Assembly: GCA_951406725.2 (NCBI GenBank)
Contig: OX597824.1
Span: 57,536,001 to 57,600,000 of the forward strand
Length of the DNA: 64,000 nt
Source of the DNA: Octopus vulgaris
Taxonomy: Eukaryota
Reading direction: 5' to 3'
Shown here piece after piece: positions 4,615 to 61,914 of the stretch. Numbering within the stretch: the first letter of the stretch is position 1; the number at the start of each line of letters is the position of its first letter. Made by a program: the position numbers and the translations under genes. The notes under the pieces are model-generated. The model was not told the origin of the DNA and made no database searches. It saw only the letters and a list, made by a program, of their open reading frames with translations.

Positions 4615-4822
4615 TTGTTTCAAATTTTGACACAAGGCTAGCAACTTCAGGGAAGTGGGTAAGTCGATTACATTGACTCCAATGCTCAAATAGTACCTAT
4701 TTCATCGACCCCAATATGATGGAGGTAAAGTCAACCTCGGTGGAATTTAAACTCAGAGCGATAGACCGGCAAAATACCACTGAGCATTTTTCCCGGCGTG
4801 CTTACGCTTCTACCAGTTCGTC
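4615..4822 (-). mobile_element. SINE family B (diverged)
   Basis: Reverse-complement match to family B. Confidence 0.7.
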
Positions 4823-6152
4823 GTTTTACCACAGCAACAATAAAAAAAAAAAGGCATCGGAGGGGCGATGTATAGCTTGCGCGCAGATAATTTTTTTCGC
4901 AAATTGTTGTGGCTTTCAATGCGTTGGTTACCCAAGCTTTTTAATAGAATTGAATTACGCTTTGTAAGTGTTTGACTAAAAGAGAATAAGAAACTTAAGT
5001 AGATGACAGCTAAAAGTAGACTTGATCGATGTCTAAGCCAAACGCATATGAGGGAAATTGCATATGACTAAATAAATGATTATTCAAATAATAATTATTA
5101 TGAAAAAGAAAGTGAGCAAAATGAAATACTTATAAAGAATATTGCATAGAATTTGAGAAGTGTTTTCAACGTCTTTCAGTGATGGTAGGCGAATTAAACT
5201 ACTGTAATTCGTTGTAGGATATAAATTATATGTTCGATTTTAAAATAAGTTCGATTAAAAAAAAACTATTTAGAGTCGCATATCTATGTATGTGTTCATG
5301 TTTGTATATATGTATGTATGTATCCACACGTCTCTTCGTGCATGATCTATACACACATAAGCGAGGTTCGAATAAAATGATATATATATATAGTACTTCA
5401 TCTGGCGAGAGATAAATGATAGTTAATAGACATGATACATCTTTTTATGTGCTAGTAATAGAATTTTGTGCTGAGAATATGCTAAAACGATGCATACCCT
5501 GCGTGCACATAAATTCTTTGTCAAAAAAAGTCAATACGTTTTGATTCACCAGTCCGCCAGTTTTCAAGATAATCAAACTAAATTTTCGAGCCACTCACCG
5601 TATGAGTAGTTTTGCCAAATTTGGTGAAAATCCGTAAAGCCGTTTTCCAATAATTTTGCAAACACAGACAAACAGACGAAGATGAGTGATTGGAGCATGA
5701 CACCCCTGTTCAGACAATGGATTTCTGTTGAAGCCACCTTTCCAGTAGCTATCCCCTACCCTCCGAGCCAAATGCCATTTGATGCAACTGTGGTAGTTGT
5801 TTAACCTCGGATTAGTCTTGTTCAAGCATACATACAGCCAAAGATTACTTGAAAGAGAACAAATTTGGTTGGATGGTCCCACAGGTAATGAGTTGTGTGA
5901 AACTGATAAAAGAAAAAGAAAGGCAGGTGAGAAAGAGAGAGTGAAAGAGGGAAGGAAGAAGATGTATGAGAGAAAGACGTAAGAGAGCGAGAAAGACAGG
6001 GTTTTTCACACATACCTACCCACGCGCGCGCACATACGCATGTATGAATTGAATGTCTATGTGCGCGCGCGCGTTTGTGTAGAGAGGGGAGTAAATGATT
6101 CTCATCAATATTTATCTATATACATACATACAAATAGACATATATATATAAG

Positions 6153-9007: not shown

Positions 9008-10290
9008 GGCTGTTCCCCTGCTCCCGCCCACGCTGCGGCACTTGCCCTTACCTCTCCAACACCACCCTCCTCACCGGCATCCATCATCGACCCTATCACA
9101 TCACCGACTCTTTCACCTTCACCTCTACCAATATCATCTATTGCATCTCTTGCTCTCTCTGCCGTTCTCTGTACATCGGACAAACGGGACGCCACTTGGT
9201 TGACCGGTTCGCGGAACACCTCCGAGACATCCGTCTCGGCAATGACACCCCGGTCTCACGCCATTTCCGCTCTACCGGTCATTCTTTGCAACACTTGTCC
9301 TTGCTCAGAGGACACCCAGGCTCACGTTTGCGCCGTGAACAGGGATTAATCTTCTCTCTTCACTTCTTTGTGCTACATGGGCTCAACTCTCCTCCCCTCT
9401 TCATCTAACCTCCTCCCCTTGTCTCTCTCCCATCACTCCTACTTCCTCCCACCCATCTCTCCTCTCTTGCTCCGACTCCTACTTCTCTTCACCCTACTCT
9501 GTTTCTTTCTTCTCTCTTACTCTCTTTCTCTCATACCACCTTCCCCTTCCCCTTCATCGTCAACCCTCCCCCATAAGCCCACCCCACCCCTACACATTCC
9601 TACGCCACCTTCCCTATCCTTCCCATCCAACCCCATCCTATCCCTTACACCTTCTCCCACATACTCCATCTCTACCCCCACCCTCTGCCTACCCACAAAC
9701 CCTACCTCTACCCCTACCCTCTGCCTACCCACATATCCCAACTTTAACCCATCCCTTAGTCTAACCCACACCCCACCCGTGCTTTCCCCACTCTCGCCTC
9801 CCCAACTCCCAACAACATCACACCACATCACACTACACCATACCACACAACACATCACAACACACCATCACGCACACACCAGCACTGACCAATTCCCATC
9901 CCTACATTTTCACACCTACACATACACACCCGCACACGTCAAGATCACCAGCCCTCTTTCACACGCACATACGTACTCTCTTACACACACGCGCACCTTC
10001 GTTTTGGGATCACTACTACTTTGTTATCTCCCCTACTTCTTCGCTCACCTGAGTGACCCTTCTGTCCGGCATTCGCCATGATAGATCGGTAGCCACTACA
10101 CATATTTTTTTCTCTCATTGTTTCTCTCCTTGTATCTTTCTGTGTTCCTATCTGTGGAAGAGCGTAGGCTCGAAACGTTAAAGACTTTCAATTCCTGAAA
10201 ATTATACAAGTTATACAAGTACATCTGTTTGTTTTCTACACCACCTGTCTTCGTCTTTTGTTCTTTTCGTGAATTCTCCTCCTATATATA
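9008..10290 (+). mobile_element. 5'-truncated Penelope-like element (Neptune-type): GIY-YIG remnant, C-rich 3' UTR, pLTR
   Basis: C..PRCGTCPY..FTFTSTNIIYCISCSLCRSLYIGQTGRHLVDRFAEH..PVSRHF..GLN; terminal segment shared with 34460-34640 and 61915-62085. Confidence 0.85.
10147..10184 (+). ncRNA. variant minimal hammerhead motif (A6U core) in pLTR
   Basis: CTGTGGA a GAGC gtag GCTC GAA ACGT T aaaga; stem I degenerate in this copy. Confidence 0.5.
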
Positions 10291-28579: not shown

Positions 28580-30592
28580 TATGTTTGACTTTTGCTTTAT
28601 ATTTGTACAAGTTGGCTCCAAGTCTCACTCAGAGAACTCAAGAGACAACAGGTTGGAAGTTCGTGTTGTTGTTATGCCTAGTGTGCCATATATTTGGATT
28701 TGGATTTAATGTTGTACTAGTGGATGCTTTTAAAAAAACCATGCGAAAATTATGTTTGTTTTAAAACTTGAGATTACATAGAAATTATTTTGCGTAGGAT
28801 ATGAGCTGTTCCCATGAGCACTATCTTTTGAATTTCTGCCATTTTGGGATTTCCTGGTATCTGTGTTAGGTAGCAAACAGCCCCTTCTGCTATCATTCCC
28901 TGGGCCCTTATGACAACAGGTATTGTTTTAGTCTTCAGGTTCCACATTTTGCTGATTTCTATTTCAAGATCTTTATATTTGCTCAGTTTTTGGTAGGTCT
29001 TGACAGATACGGTTATATCGATTGGGACAGTCATATCAATGAGGAGGCATGTTCTTTGTTTGAAGTCTTTCAATATGATGTCTGGCCTATTTGCATCTAT
29101 CTTTCTGTCAGTTTGAATGGGGAAGTTCCAGAGGAGTGAGATGTGGTCATTTTCAAGCACTGGAGGTGGTTTGTGTTCCCACCAGTTTTTTCATGGGACA
29201 AATCCAGGTTTTTGCAGATTACCCAGTGAATATATTTTGCAGCTCTATCATGCCTGTTGAGATACTCTGAAGGCGCTAGAAGACTGCACTTGGAGACAAC
29301 ATGATCAATGGTTTCATTTTGTTGTTGACATACACGACATGTTGGGCTACTGACGTTCTTTAATATGTTGGCCTGGTAATTCCTTGTTGGTAGGCATTGA
29401 ATTTGAGCTGCTATGATAAACCCTTCTGTTTCAGATTTTAAGCCAGAGGCCATTAGCCATTGATGGGTCAGGGCTTTGTCAACATCTGCATTAGAGAGGT
29501 TTTTCTTGCCATTTATCATTCAGAATATCTAAGGCAGCAGTTTTAGCATGGGTTTTCATGCGTTTAGCTTTTTCTGTGCTTGTTTCTTGTATGTCTAATT
29601 CCGAAATTTATTGTATTCGGAATTTACTTAGATATTCCTTTGCCTGTTTTGTTACTGAGTATGATGCTTTCTTGTTTTCATGTTTTGAGACAAGTTTTAA
29701 CATCCAGTCCTCAGAGTTTTTCAGGTAGGTGTCTAGGCCAATTGTAGCAATCTTCATTGTTATTGCCAGTTGTAAAAGTCCACGAGCTCCCTCTTTTCTT
29801 GTCAGATAAAGTCGTTCTATATCTGCCTTAGGGTGGTGCATTGTATGCATTGTCAACAGTTTTCTTATTTTTCTGTCAAGATTACATATTTCAGTAATTG
29901 ACCAGTTAACGATATTGAAACTGTAATTCACGACTGGTGTGGCTAAAGCATTGATCACTTCGATCCTGTTTCTCGCATTCAGTTCTGTCTTGAGTATTGC
30001 TCTTACTCTGCGATAACATTCTCTCCTGATCCTTTCCTTCATCACTGAATGCCTTATTCCGTCCCCTTCAATTACCCCTAGGTACTTGTAGCTCTCCGCT
30101 TGGTCTAATTCTTTTATGACATTCTGCTGGTCAAGGTTAACGTTAGATGTTTCTGTCATTTTTCCTTTGATAAAGGTAGCTTTTGCACATTTATCGAGGC
30201 CAAATTGCTTTCTGATGTCATCACTGAATTGTTTAACAATCGCTAGTAAGCCCTTGAGTTGTTGGTCAATTTTTGCAAAGAGCTTTAAATAATCCATGTA
30301 AATGAGATGATTTATATTTTTATCAAACATTTTATATCCGTACTGCGCGTTATTGAGCAATTTTGAGAGAGGTATTAAGGCTAAACAAAGGAGAAGTGGT
30401 GATAGTGAGTCACCCTGGAAAATTCCACATGAAATTTTTACATCACCAGCATTTAGAGATTCATTATCACTGTTCAAAGTTAGTGTGGTTCTCCATGGTC
30501 TCATACTTACAGACAAAAAGTTTCGCAGAGTAGGTGCTATTTTATACATTTCCAGGCATTTCTTAATCCAGCTATGTGGTAGGCTATCAAAA
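28579..30592 (-). mobile_element. 5'-truncated Dong/R4-clade LINE (RT, CCHC finger, restriction-like endonuclease), disrupted
   Basis: FDSLPHSWI, GIFQGDSLSP, HLIYMDY (YMDD mutated), YKYLG; CRVCQQQNETIDHVVSKC; RPDIILKD..LIDMTVP..KLSKYKDL; flanked both sides by (TTA)n. Confidence 0.93.
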
Positions 30593-30672
<80 letters not shown>

Positions 30673-32362: not shown

Positions 32363-33635
32363 CGAGGGACGTTCAATAAGTAATGTCCCTGACCCACTTG
32401 CATTTGTTTGACCTGGCTGAAATTTTGCATGTGCAATTATTTATATCTTTATAGAATAAGTAGCAAATTACAGCTCTGAACTAATTGTGGTTTCTGATTT
32501 ACAGGTGTTTGAACTGAGTCAGGTGTGAAATGGAGCCTGTTGAGTGTCGAGTAGTGATCCGGTTTTTGTATTTGAAACGACGCACACCACGGAAGACTTT
32601 TGATGAAATGAAAGTAACTTATGGTGATGATGTCCCATCATATGACCTTGTAAAACGCTGGCATCGTGAATTCAAACATGGTCGGAACTCTGTGGAAACA
32701 GCTCCCAGATCTGATCGCCCTCCTTCTACCATTGATGAGGCATCTGTCCGTCAAGTTGAGGCTGCCATTTTGGAAGATCGACGCATAACTATTCGCCAAA
32801 TAGCCCATAAGGTCAGTGGAAACTATCATTCATGACCATTTGCATATGCAAAAGGTGTCTGCCAGATGGATTCCCAGGTTGCTCACACCTTTCCAGAAGC
32901 AAGAACGCGTCGAGTGCTCGAGGATGAATTTGGAGATGTGCCAAGATGAGTCAAAATTTTTCGAAAGACTGATTAGACAGGATGAAACCTGGGTCCATCA
33001 CTATGATCCAGAGACCAAAGCCCAGTCAATGCAGTGGAAGTACCGTGACTCACCTCCTCCAAAGAAGGCAAGGGTGCAGCCCTCCGCTGGCAAGGTCATG
33101 CTCACAGTCTTCTGGGACCAGGACGGAGTAGTGATGACAGATTTCCTGGCAAAGGGTACCACAATTACAGGAGCCTATTATGCTTCACTTTTGAGGAAAT
33201 TAAGAGAAGCTATCAAAATCAAGAGACGGGGCAAGATCAGCAAAGGCATCCCCCTCTTGCAGGACAACGCTCCGGTCCACAACTCGCGTGTCGCCAGATC
33301 AGAAGCACAGGCGTGCGGCTATGAACTCCTCCCTCATTCCCCCTACTCTCCTGACCTTGCACCCTCTGATTTTCACCTCTTCCCAGCCATGAATTTGTTT
33401 TTGAAAGGAAAGCGTTTCCCAGATGATGCAGCCTTGATTTCTGAAGTCACGTCGTGGTTGGAGGTCCAAACTGGGGTCTTCTACACAAACGGTCTCCAGA
33501 GCTGCATCAAATGATGGGAGAAATGCGTAACTCTGGGTGGTTCCTATATAGAAAAAGACTAATAACTGTGCCAAGTTTCGTTGCTCTACTGCTATGGGAG
33601 ATGGGTCAGGGGCATTACTTATTGAACGCCCCTCG
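32363..33635 (+). mobile_element. full-length mariner, transposase pseudogene
   Basis: ~34-bp TIRs cgagggacgttcaataagtaatg, TA flanks; ORFs 32530..32835 and 32816..33514 with WIPRLL, DETW, QDNA, YSPDLAPSD; one frameshift and a late stop. Confidence 0.95.
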
Positions 33636-34640: not shown

Positions 34641-35528
34641 TATATATATATATATATACACACACACATATACGTATGTAGGCAATGAATTCAGGAGATT
34701 GAGGGGAAGAAGTCCCTCCCGGAAGAAGTGGAATAAAATTTTATGCATATATGTATAATGAATAGGTACTCCTATGAAAAGAAGTAAAAAAGACAAGTGA
34801 AAATGTCCTGGGAATAAAGATAGATCGAAAGTGACAAGATCTAAGACAATGGGAGAAAAAGAGAAACAGAAAAGCGTTTATGAGGCTCAAAAATTTTTCT
34901 ACTTGAGGATCTTAGCCAGATTGACCATTTACAATTATCAGGCTTAAAAAGGACGGATGGGGGAGGCGGAGAGATAGTCTGAGGAGACGTACTGCATATA
35001 ATAGCGCCGTGTGTCTGTGACTGTGTGTGTTGATAGATATATATTTTGTTGGCAGATATATATTTACATACATATAGATACATGCAGACGAACACGCGCG
35101 CACACGCACACACATACACATACATATATGTATATACACACACGTAAATATATATACACACAGAAAAGGCAGATACGCAGGTTTACAAACTTACACATAA
35201 GCAGGGATATACACACGCTAGTATACTGATATACATTCACGTATATATCCATATATATAAATATATACATATATACACACAGATGCAGGTACTATAAAAA
35301 AAACCTATATATATACACAGTTACAAGCACAAAGAAACAAACATGATAATGTATTGAAATACACGTATATAGACAAATGCATAGGGATAGATATTTGTTA
35401 ATATACACATACTTACTGATATATTTGTACATATATACCCGGATATATTCATTTTCAGACATATATACAATATCCATATAGGTACACATACAAATATAGA
35501 TATAAATAAATTTATATATATATATATA

Positions 35529-36339
35529 ATAATTAATAAATATAAGGGTAGCAAAAAATTCTAGAAAAAATTCTCCACTACCAGCGGTCCAGTGAGAAAG
35601 AAAAGACTATATAATATACATTCAAAAATATAAGGAATGGACATAATAGGACATTCGACTCACTAGAAAGAGCAACCAAACTCAAACCGCTAATAGTTGT
35701 AATTCTGAAATTGAAAGAGAAATAAAAACGTTTACCCTTTCATCTCTGGACTATGCATAGTTTACAACTGGCGTGCCTCGTCAGCAGAGAAGCCAAGGAC
35801 GAACATATATCCACGAGGCGATGGTAAGGAAGCCTCAAGTCTATATGCTATAAATTTTCAAAATCTACCGCAATCGCGCGGTCTTCTCAGTAGCAAATAT
35901 AAACTGCTGAATTAATTTCAAAATTAGCCAAAAAATCATTAATTGATAAATATAAGGGTAGCAAAAAATTCTTATATTTATTAATTAATGATTTCTTGGC
36001 TAATTTTGAAATTAATTCAGCAGTTTATATTTGCTGCTGAGAAGACCGCGCGATTGCGGTAGATTTTGAAAATTTATAGCATATAGACTTGAGGCTTCCT
36101 TACCATCGCCTCGTGGATATATGTTCGTCCTTGGCTTCTCTGCTGACGAGGCACGCCAGTTGTAAATAAATTTAATTTAATTTAATTAATTTGTTTACTA
36201 AAGTTTGCCGAAACTATGCATAGTCCAGAGATGAAAGGGTAAACGTTCTTATTTCTCTTTCAATTTCAGAACTACAACTATTAGCGGTTTGAGTTTGGCT
36301 GCTCTTTCTAGTGAGTCGAATGTCCTATTATGGCCATTC
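35529..36339. mobile_element. retrozyme-like / non-autonomous PLE fold-back element
   Basis: Inverted arms 35635-35956 / 35971-36339; 33-bp direct repeat at 35529 and 35940; HHR; (TA)n flanks. Confidence 0.85.
36137..36231 (+). ncRNA. canonical type I hammerhead ribozyme
   Basis: TCTCTG CTGACGA GGCA..TGCC GAA ACTATGCATAGT C CAGAGA; GUC site, predicted cut after 36225. Confidence 0.92.
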
Positions 36340-36340
36340 A

Positions 36341-36404
<64 letters not shown>

Positions 36405-36407
<3 letters not shown>

Positions 36408-36992
36408 TAAGAAAGTTTGTTTGGTAAAGCACGTGGGTGAATATATAAGAAAATAGTAAAGTGTGAAAAAACGACAGAAGGCTTAAATGTTAAAAAATAT
36501 ATATATTTGTGTCAAAATGTCTGGAGAATATTGGAAAAATTTTTTTCCTTTCCTTAAAATGACATAATTTTAATATTTTTAAAGAAATTACCGGTTTCGC
36601 GTGTAGCTTTTCAAATTTCTTGTGACGTTATGTTTATATTGCATGGAGTTATCGTTGTATTTATTTTCAGGAGATTTCTAAATAAGGGGAGGTAGTGAGT
36701 GATTTCTTCCGGTGTAAGGGAGATAATCGCATAAAATTTTTTTTCCTTTTCCCTTGTTCATTTCTCTGTGTCAGTATGTTCGGATGGTTTTTCACTTTCC
36801 CTTGTTAATTTCTCTGTGTCAGTATGTTCGGATGGTTGAGTCTGGGTTTGTACTTTTCAATGAAGAATGTTTCCTTGTTCAGTCTCATTTGTGTTGATGA
36901 TCCGAAAGCACATTGGTAAAATGGGAAGATTAAAAATTGTGGCAGTAGTTGCTTTGCGCATTTCTCAATGTGCTCACTAAAAGGTATCATTC
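36405..36992 (-). mobile_element. Penelope-like 3' fragment (GIY-YIG C-terminus and pLTR)
   Basis: IPFSEHIEKCA..FLIFPFYQ..RLNKETFFIEKYKPRLN, homologous to the C-terminus of ORF 38410..39381. Confidence 0.85.
36582..36621 (-). ncRNA. minimal hammerhead with U3-A8 core
   Basis: AAGAAAT TTGAAAA GC tacac GC GAA ACCGGT A ATTTCTT; perfect 7-bp stem I. Confidence 0.75.
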
Positions 36993-37009
36993 TATATTCT
37001 GGGAATGCA

Positions 37010-37040
<31 letters not shown>

Positions 37041-38132: not shown

Positions 38133-38182
<50 letters not shown>

Positions 38183-38259
38183 AAGGGTGAAAAGGAACAC
38201 ACGAGTTGATATATATGAAAAAACAAGTCAAAAATAGAAAATGCTAAAATAATTTTATA

Positions 38260-39381
38260 GAAAGATATGGCAGCCCTTTCTCCATCTACATAGAAAACAA
38301 CTGGAAGAGATATCTAGATGACTGTTTCATTCTTTGGCATAAAAATATAGAAAAACTCATAGAATTCCAGGAAATTTTAAACGGACTGGACGTAAACATC
38401 CAATTCACGATGGAATATAGCCAGCAACAACTCCCCTTCCTCGATATCCTCATTAAGAAAGCTAATAATATAATAGAAACAGACATATATTATAAGCCTA
38501 CAGACTCTAAGCAATATCTTCCATTCAATTCATGCCACCCCAGACACACCAGGATGAATATCCCCTTCAATCTAGCAAAAAGGATATGCACTATAGTCTC
38601 TAACGCAAACACCAGAGACACACGACTACAAGAACTAAAAGATACCCTTATCACCAGGAACTATCCACCTTCACTTATTGACAAGTGCATTCAACGTGCC
38701 CTTCAACTTAACATCAAGGAACTGAGACACCCCAAATCAAAGAAAAACTTACAACCAAAAGCCTTACCATACATCTCCACACACAACCCTCTCAATAACG
38801 AAGCCTTCGGCACCATCCTCCACAACATACCCCTCCTAAAAAAAGACCACAGAATGAACACAATCCTCCAAACACACACGATCATAAAAAGCAAGAGACA
38901 GCCTAAATCCATGAAAAGTCTCCTAACACAAGCCCGAATTCACTCTTCAACACAGAAGCCGACAGTAAAAAAATGTGGAAGACCCAATTGCGGGATATGC
39001 GACTATCTAATTGAGGGATCAGAGCTCTCCTTCAAACAGGGACAACGGTTTACAGTGAAAAGCAACTTCACATGTGCTTCGGAGAACCTAATATACTCAC
39101 TAACCTGCTCCGGGTGTCAAGAGCAGTACATAGGCCAAACAAAAAATAGTTTGCGTAAACGAATGGCCCTGCACAGATCCCAGATAAAAATTCCCCAAAA
39201 CAGAAAAATAGCTTTTAGCCAACACATAGATACTTGCGCCAACAAAAAAACACCAAGCTTCAGGATTTTCCCCCTCTACCAATTTAGGGACGATACAACC
39301 TCGAGACAACGAATAAGTAAAGAAACTCTCTTTATTACAAAATACAGGCCACTTCTTAACGGGTCTACGACAAACAATTAA
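38260..39381 (+). CDS. PLE RT C-terminus, Zn linker and GIY-YIG endonuclease (5' truncated, uninterrupted)
   Basis: WKRYLDDCF, LPFLDI, YYKPT, SCHP, CGRPNCGIC, LIYSLTCSGCQEQYIGQT, PLLN. Confidence 0.9.
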   Translation, partial: ERYGSPFSIYIENNWKRYLDDCFILWHKNIEKLIEFQEILNGLDVNIQFTMEYSQQQLPFLDILIKKANNIIETDIYYKPTDSKQYLPFNSCHPRHTRMNIPFNLAKRICTIVSNANTRDTRLQELKDTLITRNYPPSLIDKCIQRALQLNIKELRHPKSKKNLQPKALPYISTHNPLNNEAFGTILHNIPLLKKDHRMNTILQTHTIIKSKRQPKSMKSLLTQARIHSSTQKPTVKKCGRPNCGICDYLIEGSELSFKQGQRFTVKSNFTCASENLIYSLTCSGCQEQYIGQTKNSLRKRMALHRSQIKIPQNRKIAFSQHIDTCANKKTPSFRIFPLYQFRDDTTSRQRISKETLFITKYRPLLNGSTTNN

Positions 39382-40100
39382 TATACCTCAACTTTAGAAT
39401 AAAAGAAATATACACACACAAATATTACATTCCAAAGAATCCATTACTAATCAGCCCCCAATCACAGCTATACTCCATAACATGCCAACTTCAAGTCATA
39501 CAACACCTCACTACTTTCACCCATTCATATTCTCCCTTCTCTGTTTTTTCTTCTTCTTCCTCTTCTTCTTCATCATCATCATTATCATCATCATCGTCGT
39601 CATCATCATCACCACCATTATCATCATCATCATCTTCTCCTTCTCCTTCTTCTTCTTCTTCTTCTTCTTCTTCTTCTTCTTCTTCTTCTTCTTCATCATC
39701 ATCATCAACATCGTCATCTTCTTCTTCTTCTTCTTCTTCTACTTCTCCACCTTCTACCCCTTAACTTTGTCACTAATGTTTTTTAGTATAACACCTACGC
39801 AAATTCCATAAACAAGCCTTTCAATAGAAATATTCTCCTGAATTGAACTGCGACTGCTAGCCGCCACTGACCATTCAAAATACGACCATCAGGGCACTCC
39901 CAGATTTTCCCACCCCCTTTCCTCATCAGCCTTCTTCTTCTTCTACCCTACCAAGAACTCACAACGACCTCCAACACACAAGTGCAAACAAGGGAGTCAG
40001 AGAAAGGCAGAATGCCACTTATATCTGAACACTACTATAGAAATATTCCTTTAAAAAAACTTTTCTTCTAATTTTTCTAAATTTAATTATTTAATCGTTA

Positions 40101-40138
40101 CAGTTGAAAAGGTCTCAAAATGACCGAAACCGGTACTG
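40101..40138 (+). ncRNA. minimal hammerhead with U3-A8 core in pLTR
   Basis: CAG TTGAAAA GGTC tcaaaat GACC GAA ACCGGT A CTG. Confidence 0.75.
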
Positions 40139-40275
40139 AAATGTTCACTATAAAATTATTTTAGCATTTTCTATTTTTGACTTGTTTTTTCATATATATA
40201 TATATATATATATATAGATAGATAGATATATGTATATATACACACACGTATACATGTATTGGTCCAGGCCATGTG

Positions 40276-40355: not shown

Positions 40356-41965
40356 CAGTTGCGGCCAAAATGTTCAGAACGGCATTGTTTTCGTCAGAAA
40401 AGTAGTTATAAGTTTTTATTAAAGTTGTTTTATATTCTATAATTTTCACGGACAATAAATACGATATTAATTGGTATTGTCTGAGATTTTGGTGTAATTT
40501 GAGTGGATGATACAAAAGTTATGGATGATATAGTGATTTACTGCAAAAGCCATGGTGGCCAGAATGATCAGAACGGTTGAAAAAATAAAAAAATAATCAA
40601 AAAGTGACAGAGAATGCAGGAATTATTTCATATTTAGTGTGAAGCCCTTTAGCTTCAATCAAAGTTTGACATTTTTGACTGCATGGGGAAATTAAATTTT
40701 CAATTCCTTGCTGGGTGATCTTATTCCATTCTTCCTGAAGGGCATTCCATAAATGCTCGGTTGTTTTAGGATTTCTGGCTTTCAAACGTTCTCCTAGAAT
40801 ATTCCACACATTTTCAATAGGATTGAGGTCTGGGCTTTGAGCAGGCCAATCCATAACAATAACCTTTTCAGCCTTGAGGAAGTTCATGACCACCTTAGCC
40901 TTGTGACATGGGGCATTGTCCTGCATGAATATGAGTGGTCGCTTAGTTGAATTTCTCAGCACAGGCAAGACATGATCTTTTACAAGTTGTTTATAAGCTC
41001 CTGCATTTACCTTTCCATGTAATCGCAGCAAAGGGCCCACAACATCTCCAGGTATCATCCCCCAAACCATGACACTTCATCCACCGAATTTAACACTAGT
41101 CTTAAGGCATTTAGGTGACAATTTTTCACCTGCTTTTCCCATCTGAGCCAAATAACATAGACTTAGATTCATCACTGAAATGCACCGTTTGCCATTTTTC
41201 TTGAGACCACAACACATATTCGGTTGCAAAGGTAAGACGACACTTTTTATTCTTGGAGCTTCACTGCAGATGCTCTTGCTTGTAGGTCATGTTCAACTAA
41301 AGGACGAGACACAGTTTTTCGAGATAAAATTTTCTTCAGTACAATGCTCATTTCCCGAAAAACAGCAGCAGCAGTTTTAAATCTGTCCATCTGTCCTTTT
41401 TAACCAACTTTACCATAGCACGATCTTCTCTCTTGGTCGTTTTCCTTGGCCTACCTGTAGACTTTCTTGCTTCACACGAACCACAATCATCGTAGACCTT
41501 AAGAATACCGTGAACAACACTTTTTGACTTGTTAACAATCTTTGCAATAGACCTAATACTTAAATTATGCTTCTTTCGAAGCTTAATAATCTGCTGACGA
41601 ATTGGTAACGGAGTAAGTGGCATTATATTAACAAAGTATACTGCAAATATTCTTACTAATGTTTAGTAAACGAACTGTCACGTAAACAAATTCAAAACAT
41701 TAGAGTTCGACGGTTAAATATACTAAAACATGGAGTAAAAGCAACCGTTCTGATCATTTTGGTCGCCATCGGTTTTGCAGTAAATCACTAAATCATCCAT
41801 GACTTTTTCATTATCCTCTCAAATTACACCAAAATCTCAGACAATAACAAATAATATCGTTTTTATTGTCTGTGAAAATTATAGAATATAAAACAACTTT
41901 GATAAAAACTTATACCTACTTTTCTGACGAAAACAATGCCGTTCTGAACATTTTGGCCGCAACTG
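40356..41965 (-). mobile_element. full-length Tc1 element with long IR/DR-type TIRs, transposase pseudogene
   Basis: ~225-bp TIRs cagttgcggccaaaatgttcagaacgg with inner direct repeat, TA flanks; GRPRKTT, FSDESK, MQDNAPCH, SPDLNPIENVW; frameshifts. Confidence 0.95.
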
Positions 41966-53720: not shown

Positions 53721-54990
53721 TCAGGTCATCCCATGAGTCCTGTCCGATTTTACCTTTTTGTAAAATTGAATGAAATTTAATAGTATTTTAGAATGTCTAA
53801 TGGAATTAAAAATTCTTTTTATGCATTTGTGTACATTTAAACTAATTAAGTATTATTTTACAGAATAATAGAATTAAAATTTCTTTGATTAAAGCCCTTT
53901 CTAACATGGAAGTATCCCAAAAGCATTTAAATCACATAATGCTTTATGAGTACAAAAAAGGAAACTCTGCAGCCGAAGCGACTCGAAACATACACTCAGT
54001 TTATGGGAAAGAATGCTTGAATGAAAGAACTTGCAGAAGATGGTTTCCAAAATTCAGAAGTGGAGATTTCAGCCTTGAAGATGAAGATCGAACAGTAAGT
54101 CCAGTTGAGTTTGATTATAAGCTCCTTTAGACATTACTTGAAGAAAATCCTGCATTACCAGTTGAATAATTGGCAATAAAGCATAGTTCAAACCATACAA
54201 CTGTTCATCGTCATCTTCAACAACTTGGAAAGGTTCCTAAACTTGGAAAATAGGTGCCTCGTGAATTGACCGAAAGCAACCTCAAATTCCTAGATGACAT
54301 CTGCTCTTCTCTCCATTCGCGCGAACTCATTTTACCCTTTCAAGATAGACTTGTGACTGGTGACGAAAAATGGATCTTCTATCGAAATGCTAAACGTCGT
54401 AAACAGTGGCCTGGTAAAAGGGAAAAAGCTCAACCACAACTGAGAAGGAAACTTCATGGAAAAAATGTTCTCTCTATCTGGTGGGATTGCAAAGGAGTAA
54501 TTCACTTTGGGTTACCAATGCAACAATCAAGTCTACAGTCAGCAATTAGAGCGTTTGAACCAAGCTTTGAAGGAAAAGAAACCCGCTTTAGTGAATCGAA
54601 AAGGAGTGATGTTTCATCAGGACAATGCGAGACCCCACACTGCAAAGATCACATCACAGAAGATCGAAGAGCTTGGTTGGGAAAAATTCCTCATCCACCT
54701 TATTCTCCCGACCTTGTTCCTTCAGACTACCATATGTTTCGTAGTTTACAGAATCATTTGGGGGATATAACTTTCGCAAGCCAGGAGGAGGTCGAAACTA
54801 AAATTTCAGAGTTCTTCGCTTTGAAGCCAAAAGAGTTTTAGATTGATGGGATTAAAAAGCTAGTAAATAGATGGAAGAAGCAATAGATAATCAGGGAAAG
54901 TACAATGATGATTAAATTGCAATTAAATATAATATTTGATCACTTGTATATTTTATTCCAAATTTGGACAGAACTTATGGGATGACCTGA
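53721..54990 (+). mobile_element. full-length mariner (second family), transposase pseudogene
   Basis: TIRs tcaggtcatcccatgagtcctgtcc / ggacagaacttatgggatgacctga, TA flanks; VTGDEKW, HQDNARPH, YSPDLVPSDYHMF; several stops and frameshifts. Confidence 0.95.
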
Positions 54991-55117
54991 TATATCGCGA
55001 GTTCAGTCCCACGTTCGACAAGCGTCTTCTACTATAGCCCCGTGCCAACCAGTGCTTTGTCGGTGGATATGGAAAACGGAAACAGAAAAAATCCACACAT
55101 ACATGTATTAAAAAATC

Positions 55118-55620
55118 TTACGGTAGCAAAAATATTTATAGAAACATTCTTTGTTACCACTGGTCTAGCGAGAAGGAAAAATTTAGTCAATAGACTATAC
55201 ATTATTCATAGAAGAATACAGTGTACATTCAGACACATAAGTTATGATAAAAGGTTTTTGGCTAATTTTGAAAGAAAATCGGCAATATATTTACTGCCGG
55301 ATAGTTCCGCATTTGCGCGGAGGATTCGAAAAATTATAATATATAGACACGTGGCATGTTACTTTAAGGCCTCTATATGTTGATCCCTGGCATCCTACTG
55401 ACGAAGCAGCGCCAGATATAAATTAAAATTATTTTATTTTAATTTACATAAGATTGCAGAAACTATGCATAATCTATGAAAAATAGGGTAAATGTTTTTA
55501 TTTTTCATTCCCTTTCAGAGTTGCAACTATTAGTGGTTTGGAGTTTTAACTGCTCTTTCTAGTGAGTCAGATATCCTATTATTGGTTATCTCTTATGTGT
55601 TTGAATGTACACTGTATTCA
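55118..55620 (+). mobile_element. diverged relative of the 35529-36339 element, HHR at 55393-55479
   Basis: TCCTA CTGACGA AGCA..TGCA GAA ACTATGCATAAT C TATGA; colinear with 35995-36335; inverted segment 55217-55241 / 55592-55617. Confidence 0.75.
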
Positions 55621-60651: not shown

Positions 60652-61914
60652 TATAAATATAATTATAATACATGTACACAACACACACACACAACCTTAT
60701 AGAAAATATATTTATTAACTTTATTGAAGTCATCTGTTCGCCAAAAAACTTAATTTTTGCAATTTATGTTTAGGATAGAAAGAAAATTAAAATCTGGCGA
60801 GTGCAACTTACCTTGAGAAACAGAATAGCTATTCATCGCTAAAAAATTTTAGCTCCTAAAACGAGTCAGATTCCAATAACTGAAAATTTAGACTCATATA
60901 CAACAAATCCTCTAGATACCAAGTCTCTTTGTTTTGACTAAACTACAGATCAGATACAGATAGAGATAATATGATAATTAAAAAATATAGACCATGTTTA
61001 AAAATATAAACCTCGACAAAATACGCTATAGTGAGTTGGTACTCCATATGAAAAGGATACACACAATAACCCCTAAATTCCCAAGACATTATACTGCTGC
61101 TGTTCACATTCTCGCGGACAAACGCATATACAAGCATGCACACACATTCTAGCAAATACATATGCCACTCGAATACAAGTGAGTAATCTATTATATTTTC
61201 TTTTTAAGATATTTTTATGAACTACTTGTTCGTACCATCACAGGACACATTCACTGGATTAATCCAAACCCTGACTTTTGGTACAATTATTGGCCATAAT
61301 GTCACGTGGGCTAATATAAAGAGAAATTACTGGTGATATTGTCACATGACATATCTACTGGACTAAGATGGCCTCAACTTTTGGTGCAGCTATCGTTCAT
61401 ACAATGACACTAATACACGGATGTCACAGAGAATTCACCAAATGCTACACATGATCATGTGACCATCTTTAAACCAATCAAAATACATTTTAAATGAAGA
61501 CAATACAAGCCGTAAACTCTCCTTGAAACGAAGCGAATTTTCAAGCACCGATGAAATCCAAAATCCAATCCTGGCATCACTGTCTGCCCCTCACCCATAA
61601 ACTGGTTTCAAAAATCAAGAAATTGTGGAATTGGTTAAGTTCATGTAATCGTTAATGCCTTTGTGTACACACACATATGGGCGCGTAGGCGTGTATATGT
61701 ACATACATAGATGTCTATATGTATATAACATGTATGCATACATGCAAACATATATATATCTCACCTAAGCAGCAGGGTGACATCAGGTTGACCAGCAGGC
61801 TAAAACAAGCCGAAGTGCGTTGTGACAAGCGATGAATAACAACATCCGATAGTTTGGTCAATATCGTAATGTGTGTGGGTGTGTGTGTGCGTGTATGTAT
61901 GTATATATATATAT

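Follow-up and report, generated by a model that had tools for sequence, protein, structure and literature searches.

A head-to-head insertion of a protein-free 467-nt family with a predicted hammerhead in Octopus vulgaris, most likely pasted by a Penelope-like enzyme

The window analysed here, a 64-kb stretch of Octopus vulgaris contig OX597824.1 to which all positions refer unless a locus is named, carries between two (TA)n tracts a short insertion made of two inverted arms. The central parts of the arms (35761-35956 and 35971-36166) are 98% identical with 14 nt between them, as a previous sequence-only reading of this DNA had described, and a second inverted block (35614-35763/36211-36360) has 93% identity. 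On the minus strand the left arm runs from 35972 to 35530, and the right arm occupies 35971 to 36340 of the plus strand, the 3' ends of both pointing outward into (TA)n; the left arm ends at a site called E2 and the right arm ~14 nt before a second site, E1, both sites being defined below from the family as a whole. The element is composed of the following features.

35513..35528, no strand: (TA)n target tract, left end, read from the sequence
35530..35972, minus strand: left arm, 443 bp, a full 467-nt unit plus ~33 nt, minus 47 and 10 nt, with its 3' end at the 'tail' site E2
35530..35562, minus strand: terminal repeat copy 1, at the arm's 3' (E2) end
35563..35613, minus strand: remainder of the E1-to-E2 'tail' (~97 nt when intact), with a 10-nt deletion near 35607
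35730..35790, minus strand: broken hammerhead, core and stem III retained, 47 nt lost at AAA 35761-35763
35940..35972, minus strand: terminal repeat copy 2, at the arm's 5' end, within the family 5'-end zone
35971..35972, no strand: head-to-head (5'-to-5') arm junction, 2-nt overlap
35971..36340, plus strand: right arm, 370 bp, unit positions 1-370, ~14 nt short of E1
36137..36231, plus strand: predicted type I hammerhead (stem I 6 bp, CUGACGA, stem II 4 bp, palindromic stem III)
36343..36406, no strand: (TA)n target tract, right end, read from the sequence

The two copies of the 33-nt direct repeat (35530-35562 and 35940-35972) share 97% identity and had been recognised before, with a spacing of 411 nt taken to mark a unit of ~410 bp. 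The true spacing of 410 nt falls short of the unit length by two stretches of 47 and 10 nt that have been lost from the left arm; with these added to the 410 nt between the repeats, the unit amounts to 467 nt. The 47-nt deletion between AAA microhomologies, correctly noted in the earlier reading, took away G12 together with the loop hairpin and the 3' side of stem II, and its junction occurs at this locus only among the family loci compared, while the 10-nt loss near 35607 had been overlooked. The arms differ by 7 substitutions per 322 aligned columns (~2% divergence), and both this divergence and the deletions are probably later than the insertion. A two-ribozyme tandem is absent from the locus, each strand having at most one intact ribozyme, and no cut-to-cut monomer can be released from it because the ribozyme is intact on the plus strand and broken on the minus strand. 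The locus is one aged, dead copy of a dispersed family.

This family was followed through the whole genome, which comprises 2.8 Gb in 227 contigs and is rich in microsatellites. With the right arm as query, 2022 first-look candidates were obtained and 40 of these were scored, many of them reaching 95-98%; the exact 16-nt ribozyme core was counted 744 times genome-wide against 1 for a control, and its exact 20-mer version 365 times against 0. Circularly permuted and tandem copies, which the earlier reading had proposed to look for, are present. For a closer description, and to avoid score bias, the 20-mer matches were taken in order of position: the first 100 listed, on contigs C1 to part of C5, fall in 91 loci, all of which were used. 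Across 48 multi-round arms of the family the unit period is 420-494 nt, mostly 449-472, in place of the ~410 bp formerly proposed. A diverged subfamily, to which a copy at 55107-55609 belongs, has a unit of 478-490 nt and the same layout as the main family, and remoter relatives, at ~74%, occur at positions 4817-5775 of locus L278, which suggests yet older subfamilies.

The fold-back is no peculiarity of the locus; it is a common insertion scar, head-to-head inversions being found at 36 of the 91 sampled loci. Outward 3' ends (n=127) fall at two fixed sites in 111 cases, 63 of them at E1 (unit position ~384) and 48 at E2 (~97 nt further), and 16 lie elsewhere. A TA run adjoins 47 of the 63 E1 ends and 29 of the 48 E2 ends (76/111 combined), compared with 2/16 of the others. 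The 36 inversions pair E1 with E2 in 24 cases and E2 with E2 in one, never E1 with E1, and involve another end in the remaining 11. Near unit position 323-326, where arms of loci L024, L030, L037 and L148 stop, there is a possible minor third 3' end.

Long inverted repeats in AT-rich DNA may result from misassembly or fold-back repair, and at one sampled locus the arms are identical over 151 columns; an assembly artefact, or a palindrome formed later at the DNA level from one copy, would account for such structures. For the present locus this explanation is scarcely credible, given that its arms carry 7 substitutions and two deletions, terminate at different family-defined sites and belong to a layout that recurs in 36/91 loci with strong E1+E2 pairing. 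Private deletions and 2% divergence are unlike what a fresh assembly palindrome would present, and the case against an artefact, as far as sequence can make it, rests on this divergence and on recurrence across loci.

The unit-to-unit junction in the copies is seamless, and the longest arm reaches 1204 nt, or 2.5 rounds. This bears on another explanation, already named in the sequence-only reading, which equates the unit with the terminal repeat (pLTR), now orphaned, of a coding Penelope-like element (PLE) and takes the copies for 5'-truncated insertions of that element. The scar is indeed identical to that of coding PLEs, a search for the GIY-YIG family revealed several PLE families and many intact 781-aa PLE ORFs in the genome, and Xenopus retrozymes are said to match pLTRs in the available portion of 10.64898/2026.07.22.740005. 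It is nonetheless improbable: of 131 sampled segments, 31 extend through the tail end, with at least 25 nt on each side, and what follows the tail in them is the unit start and not an ORF; no common non-unit sequence abuts the 55 outward 5' ends, other repeats aside; among 176 non-redundant loci none showed a PLE ORF continuing from the unit, and 8 of them have a separate ORF piece in the flank; and no unit homology was detected in 48 coding-PLE loci (of 6136 GIY-YIG candidates) apart from one separate 74-nt insertion, so that a coding PLE with this terminus is absent from the loci examined. In a natural two-round copy no stop-free frame is longer than 54 codons, in agreement with the lack of coding capacity noted before. 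An orphaned pLTR may still be the evolutionary origin of the family. Two loci in which an ORF follows the unit, L165 and L017, turned out to be separate PLE insertions, as far as their sequence was read.

Other candidate landmarks in the unit were considered. A promoter start near position 135, with a TATA-like motif upstream, was not accompanied by an excess of 5' ends (12/131 in positions 120-150). GT donor-like and pyrimidine-tract/CAG acceptor-like motifs stand right after the ribozyme (36237-36270) and are kept in the diverged subfamily; a splice acceptor followed by a short open frame was dismissed, the frame being closed in a diverged copy. Few 5' ends lie near the ribozyme cut (3/131 in positions 250-262) and 107/131 segments cross the cut site, a rarity which is not evidence because the sample was selected by a motif spanning the cut.

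The hammerhead of the right arm is predicted to fold as a type I ribozyme, as the earlier reading had recognised. Stem I pairs 36137-36142 with 36226-36231, the core CTGACGA occupies 36143-36149, and stem II (36150-36153/36206-36209) is capped by a 52-nt loop and followed by GAAA at 36210-36213; the 12-nt palindrome of stem III extends over 36213-36224 and C17 is at 36225, after which the cut is predicted. The ribozyme fold lies ~2 kcal/mol above the MFE structure (-27.8 vs -29.9), and Rfam gave no hammerhead match in the window or the element, only hairpin-type matches below the gathering score. The upstream core is present in 154 of 203 distinct motif regions, the 49 regions that lack it taking in truncated copies and chance motif matches, and 81/203 passed a strict intactness filter. 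Variation within the 154 cores is mainly at the free position N7 (96 C, 30 A, 24 T, 1 G). Pairing was assessed in 56 aligned copies, picked from 77 for diversity, stem III being part of the selection motif: 92% of cells were paired against 25-39% in slid controls, three stem I pairs covary, and two-sided changes amounted to 53 cells against 18.4 when shuffled (0/500), in a shuffle that ignores relatedness. The number of pairs with a two-sided change (6) was not above that of the shuffles (238/500), and the closing pair of stem II is broken in 15/56 copies, mostly of the older subfamily. The whole unit also folds strongly (z=-5.3). Taken together these models indicate that the family carries a type I hammerhead with conserved core and stems, for which cleavage is predicted, and the retrozyme-like character suspected earlier is upheld by a non-coding unit, a hammerhead with compensatory stem changes and dispersed copies.

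A read-through RNA from the locus would fold into a hairpin of ~330 bp (-571 kcal/mol over 746 nt), and it could be speculated that the host uses it as a functional long-hairpin RNA or ADAR substrate. Such a hairpin is expected of any inverted insertion, the arms have drifted by 2% with no sign of repair, and the 35 template-borne variants include 6 A>G against 3 T>C (p=0.17), with no significant excess of the kind that editing by ADAR would leave; a host function is therefore very improbable.

The nature of the insertion scar points to PLEs. In the accessible parts of PMC8557442, PLE insertions are described as having 5' truncation, partial tandems, an inverted 5' copy and (TA)n targets, with a tail of 30-40 bp that is often at one end, and the corresponding parts of PMC11167929 report that the PLE protein cuts and extends both strands from two internal RNA sites bounding the tail. 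According to the same portion of PMC11167929, insertion by PAc in vitro is independent of its ribozyme and uncleaved RNA is the main PAc substrate. The unit family has the features of PLE-mobilised copies, namely two fixed 3' ends, a one-end tail, an inverted 5'-truncated copy and partial tandems, and it is without the RT plus GIY-YIG ORF between terminal repeats that belongs to an autonomous PLE. The insertion pattern is the published PLE footprint; therefore the family is a non-autonomous, PLE-mobilised, retrozyme-type element, the match to the published scar making a PLE enzyme the most likely insertion agent. Two PLE remnants and a further copy of the unit lie elsewhere in the window.

36408..37014, minus strand: separate 5'-truncated PLE 3' end with an endonuclease C-terminus and a minimal hammerhead-like motif (tblastn E 4e-11)
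38180..40196, plus strand: 5'-truncated coding PLE with the C-terminal part of the RT and GIY-YIG, 377 aa, and an inverted 5' piece with a ~35-nt tail
55107..55609, plus strand: diverged copy (~77%) of the 467-nt unit, also with an inverted tail piece

The coding PLE at 38180-40196, only 2 kb from the element, bears the PLE scar too. Its family is very young, a stretch of 217 nt being 100% identical in at least 33 copies, and has two ends ~35 nt apart, the tail being at one end in all 3 two-ended inverted loci (3/3). The youngest unit subfamily has at its E2 end a 9-nt motif that likewise closes the tail of this PLE, which constitutes a weak lead toward a helper. The PLE 3' end at 36408-37014 shares the TA tract of the element, three PLE-type insertions being present within 5 kb, and further endonuclease remnants are located at 9019-9288 and 60735-60914. 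In an abundant PLE family represented by loci L091-L097 the 781-aa ORF is intact and comes after a long open frame, the 3' region contains short tandem repeats, and many of the copies look intact.

Minimal hammerhead-like motifs were also observed in coding PLEs, at 40108-40150, at 36590-36635 (minus strand) and at about 4800-4850 of L093. Their core is TTGAnAA, not CTGAnGA; presuming that positions 3 and 8 pair, this resembles a compensatory exchange of C3-G8 for U3-A8. The available text of PMC11167929 describes a C3/G8 rescue. Another PLE family (L099, L100) has the core CCGAAGA. Other remnants in the window include a LINE-type RT with zf-RVT and mariner/Tc1-type transposases (29100-30594 on the minus strand, 32804-33511, 54254-54838 and 40600-41076).

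We are fairly confident of the reading as a whole, in which the locus is a head-to-head insertion of a protein-free 467-nt family with a predicted hammerhead, was most likely pasted by a PLE enzyme, and belongs to a family that probably propagates by a monomer/circle cycle. In such a cycle a rare two-ribozyme locus would be transcribed and its hammerheads would cut out the monomer, probably then ligated into a circle. A PLE enzyme borrowed from a coding element would cut both strands of a (TA)n tract, and each DNA end would prime reverse transcription at a fixed RNA site, E1 or E2, in a form of twin priming; the two cDNAs would end at variable points, often near E2, and then be joined head to head. 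At the present locus the left cDNA would have started from E2 and continued for one round plus ~33 nt, and the right one would have started near E1 and halted near E2.

The form of the RNA template has several lines of evidence bearing on it. Two exact cores in direct tandem, at a spacing of 444-505 nt, occur 22 times genome-wide; beside these 22 tandems no third core was found at unit spacing, even with 2 mismatches, although more decayed cores could escape. Repeated passes of the unit within an arm are each other's nearest relatives in 17/48 arms and in the top tenth in 34/48, across all subfamilies, and inverted arms rank first in 16/44; the arms of the present locus rank 2 of 135 in relatedness and have a private variant in common at unit position 46. 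A same-template origin rests on these ranks and not on identity, because in most loci the passes, and likewise the arms, differ from each other by 1-7%; the two kinds of divergence are similar in most loci that allow both comparisons, with exceptions in both directions. Under steady 5' truncation and without long arrays, copies would have to recover their length, for which a circle is a simple means, and the few tandems, the absence of triples and the kinship of passes favour regeneration from a monomer, probably circular. Contigs assembled from four putative RNA runs cover the unit partly and one of them joins the unit end to its start; genomic copies share that junction, and the contigs carry no strand or level information.

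The 5' ends add a further element. In a zone of 46 nt around E2, a window set post hoc, stop 21 of the 39 arms at risk, against 17% expected (p=2e-7), and both 5' ends of the present locus are inside it. The sequence-only reading had seen in the terminal redundancy a sign of circular or tandem templates; the 33-nt repeat alone is no proof of a circle, because it sits where the 5' ends of the family pile up. The pile-up is compatible with a circle on which the E2 start acts as a roadblock and also with template jumps on a linear RNA that has its 5' end in this zone. A linear template with short terminal redundancy that begins near E2, its copies of more than one unit being produced by template jumps, would need no circle and accommodates several observations: 5' ends cluster at unit positions ~442-20 for E1- and E2-started arms alike, the left arm of the locus is exactly such a redundant full-length copy, jumps on the same template would homogenise passes too, and uncleaved RNA is the main PAc substrate in the parts of PMC11167929 referred to above. 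It leaves unexplained, however, why stem I pairing is kept through subfamilies 25-30% apart, and 18 of the 39 arms continue past the zone for up to 2.5 rounds, and we consider it a real but lesser possibility. Between the two template forms we lean slightly toward the circular one. A stronger proposal, to which we would grant a little under an even chance, is that one circular ribozyme RNA serves PLE enzymes as the template for synthesis from both break ends at the two fixed sites, with the E2 pile-up produced by one polymerase meeting the start of the other; on this proposal the circle would be obligatory for resetting length, given that arrays beyond ~2.5 units are absent and yet copies of more than one unit occur in every subfamily (25-30% divergence).

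For metazoan non-LTR retrozymes, mobilisation by PLEs has been proposed from co-occurrence and pLTR homology in the available text of PMC7229834 and 10.64898/2026.07.22.740005, and in the latter 8 of 9 predicted retrozyme dimers from Xenopus were uncleaved in vitro. As far as these texts extend, the octopus family shares with retrozymes a non-coding unit of a few hundred nt and low GC, a type I hammerhead with 6-bp stem I, 4-bp stem II and palindromic stem III, strong self-pairing, dispersed monomers and dimers, and the presence of PLEs in the same genome. The 467-nt unit exceeds the 170-400 nt of expressed retrozyme circles and is within the 51-972 range given in that part of 10.64898/2026.07.22.740005. 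By the head-to-tail two-ribozyme criterion for active elements in the same text, the family qualifies through 22 loci and the present locus does not. Unlike the retrozymes described there, the family has a 52-nt stem II loop, no arrays beyond ~2.5 units and head-to-head inversions that outnumber tandems, and its circle is one that we infer. At the level of sequence features the family is a non-LTR retrozyme, and no description of such an element in octopus was found in the open-access literature searched.

With endonuclease-bearing PLEs, as presented in the accessible portions of PMC8557442, PMC11167929 and PMC4209133, the family has in common 5' truncation, partial tandems, the inverted 5' copy, the one-end tail, the two fixed 3' ends, the (TA)n targets and a hammerhead in the terminal repeat. 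It differs from the PLEs of those sources in having no ORF, in a tail that leads back into the unit and not into an ORF, in the length of this tail (97 nt vs 30-40, three times that published) and in a full hammerhead where that of PLEs is minimal. A mechanistic parallel may also be drawn with LINE-1 twin priming, in which two primers act at one target and an inverted 5' piece is joined by microhomology. The octopus inversions resemble those of LINE-1 in the two primers and the inverted 5' piece, and are unlike them in having no poly(A) tail, no clear target-site duplication and arms that derive from fixed internal RNA sites.

The mobilisation of animal retrozymes by PLE machinery from a circular template has so far been more proposed than shown. 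The addition made by the present family is moderate: it is older and poor in arrays, its tail measures 97 nt, and Rfam misses its hammerhead, whose stem II loop is long. Its genomic scars can be counted and link a retrozyme to insertion of the PLE type, and the two priming sites and the stop zone proposed here are open to testing in the in vitro PLE assay that already exists.
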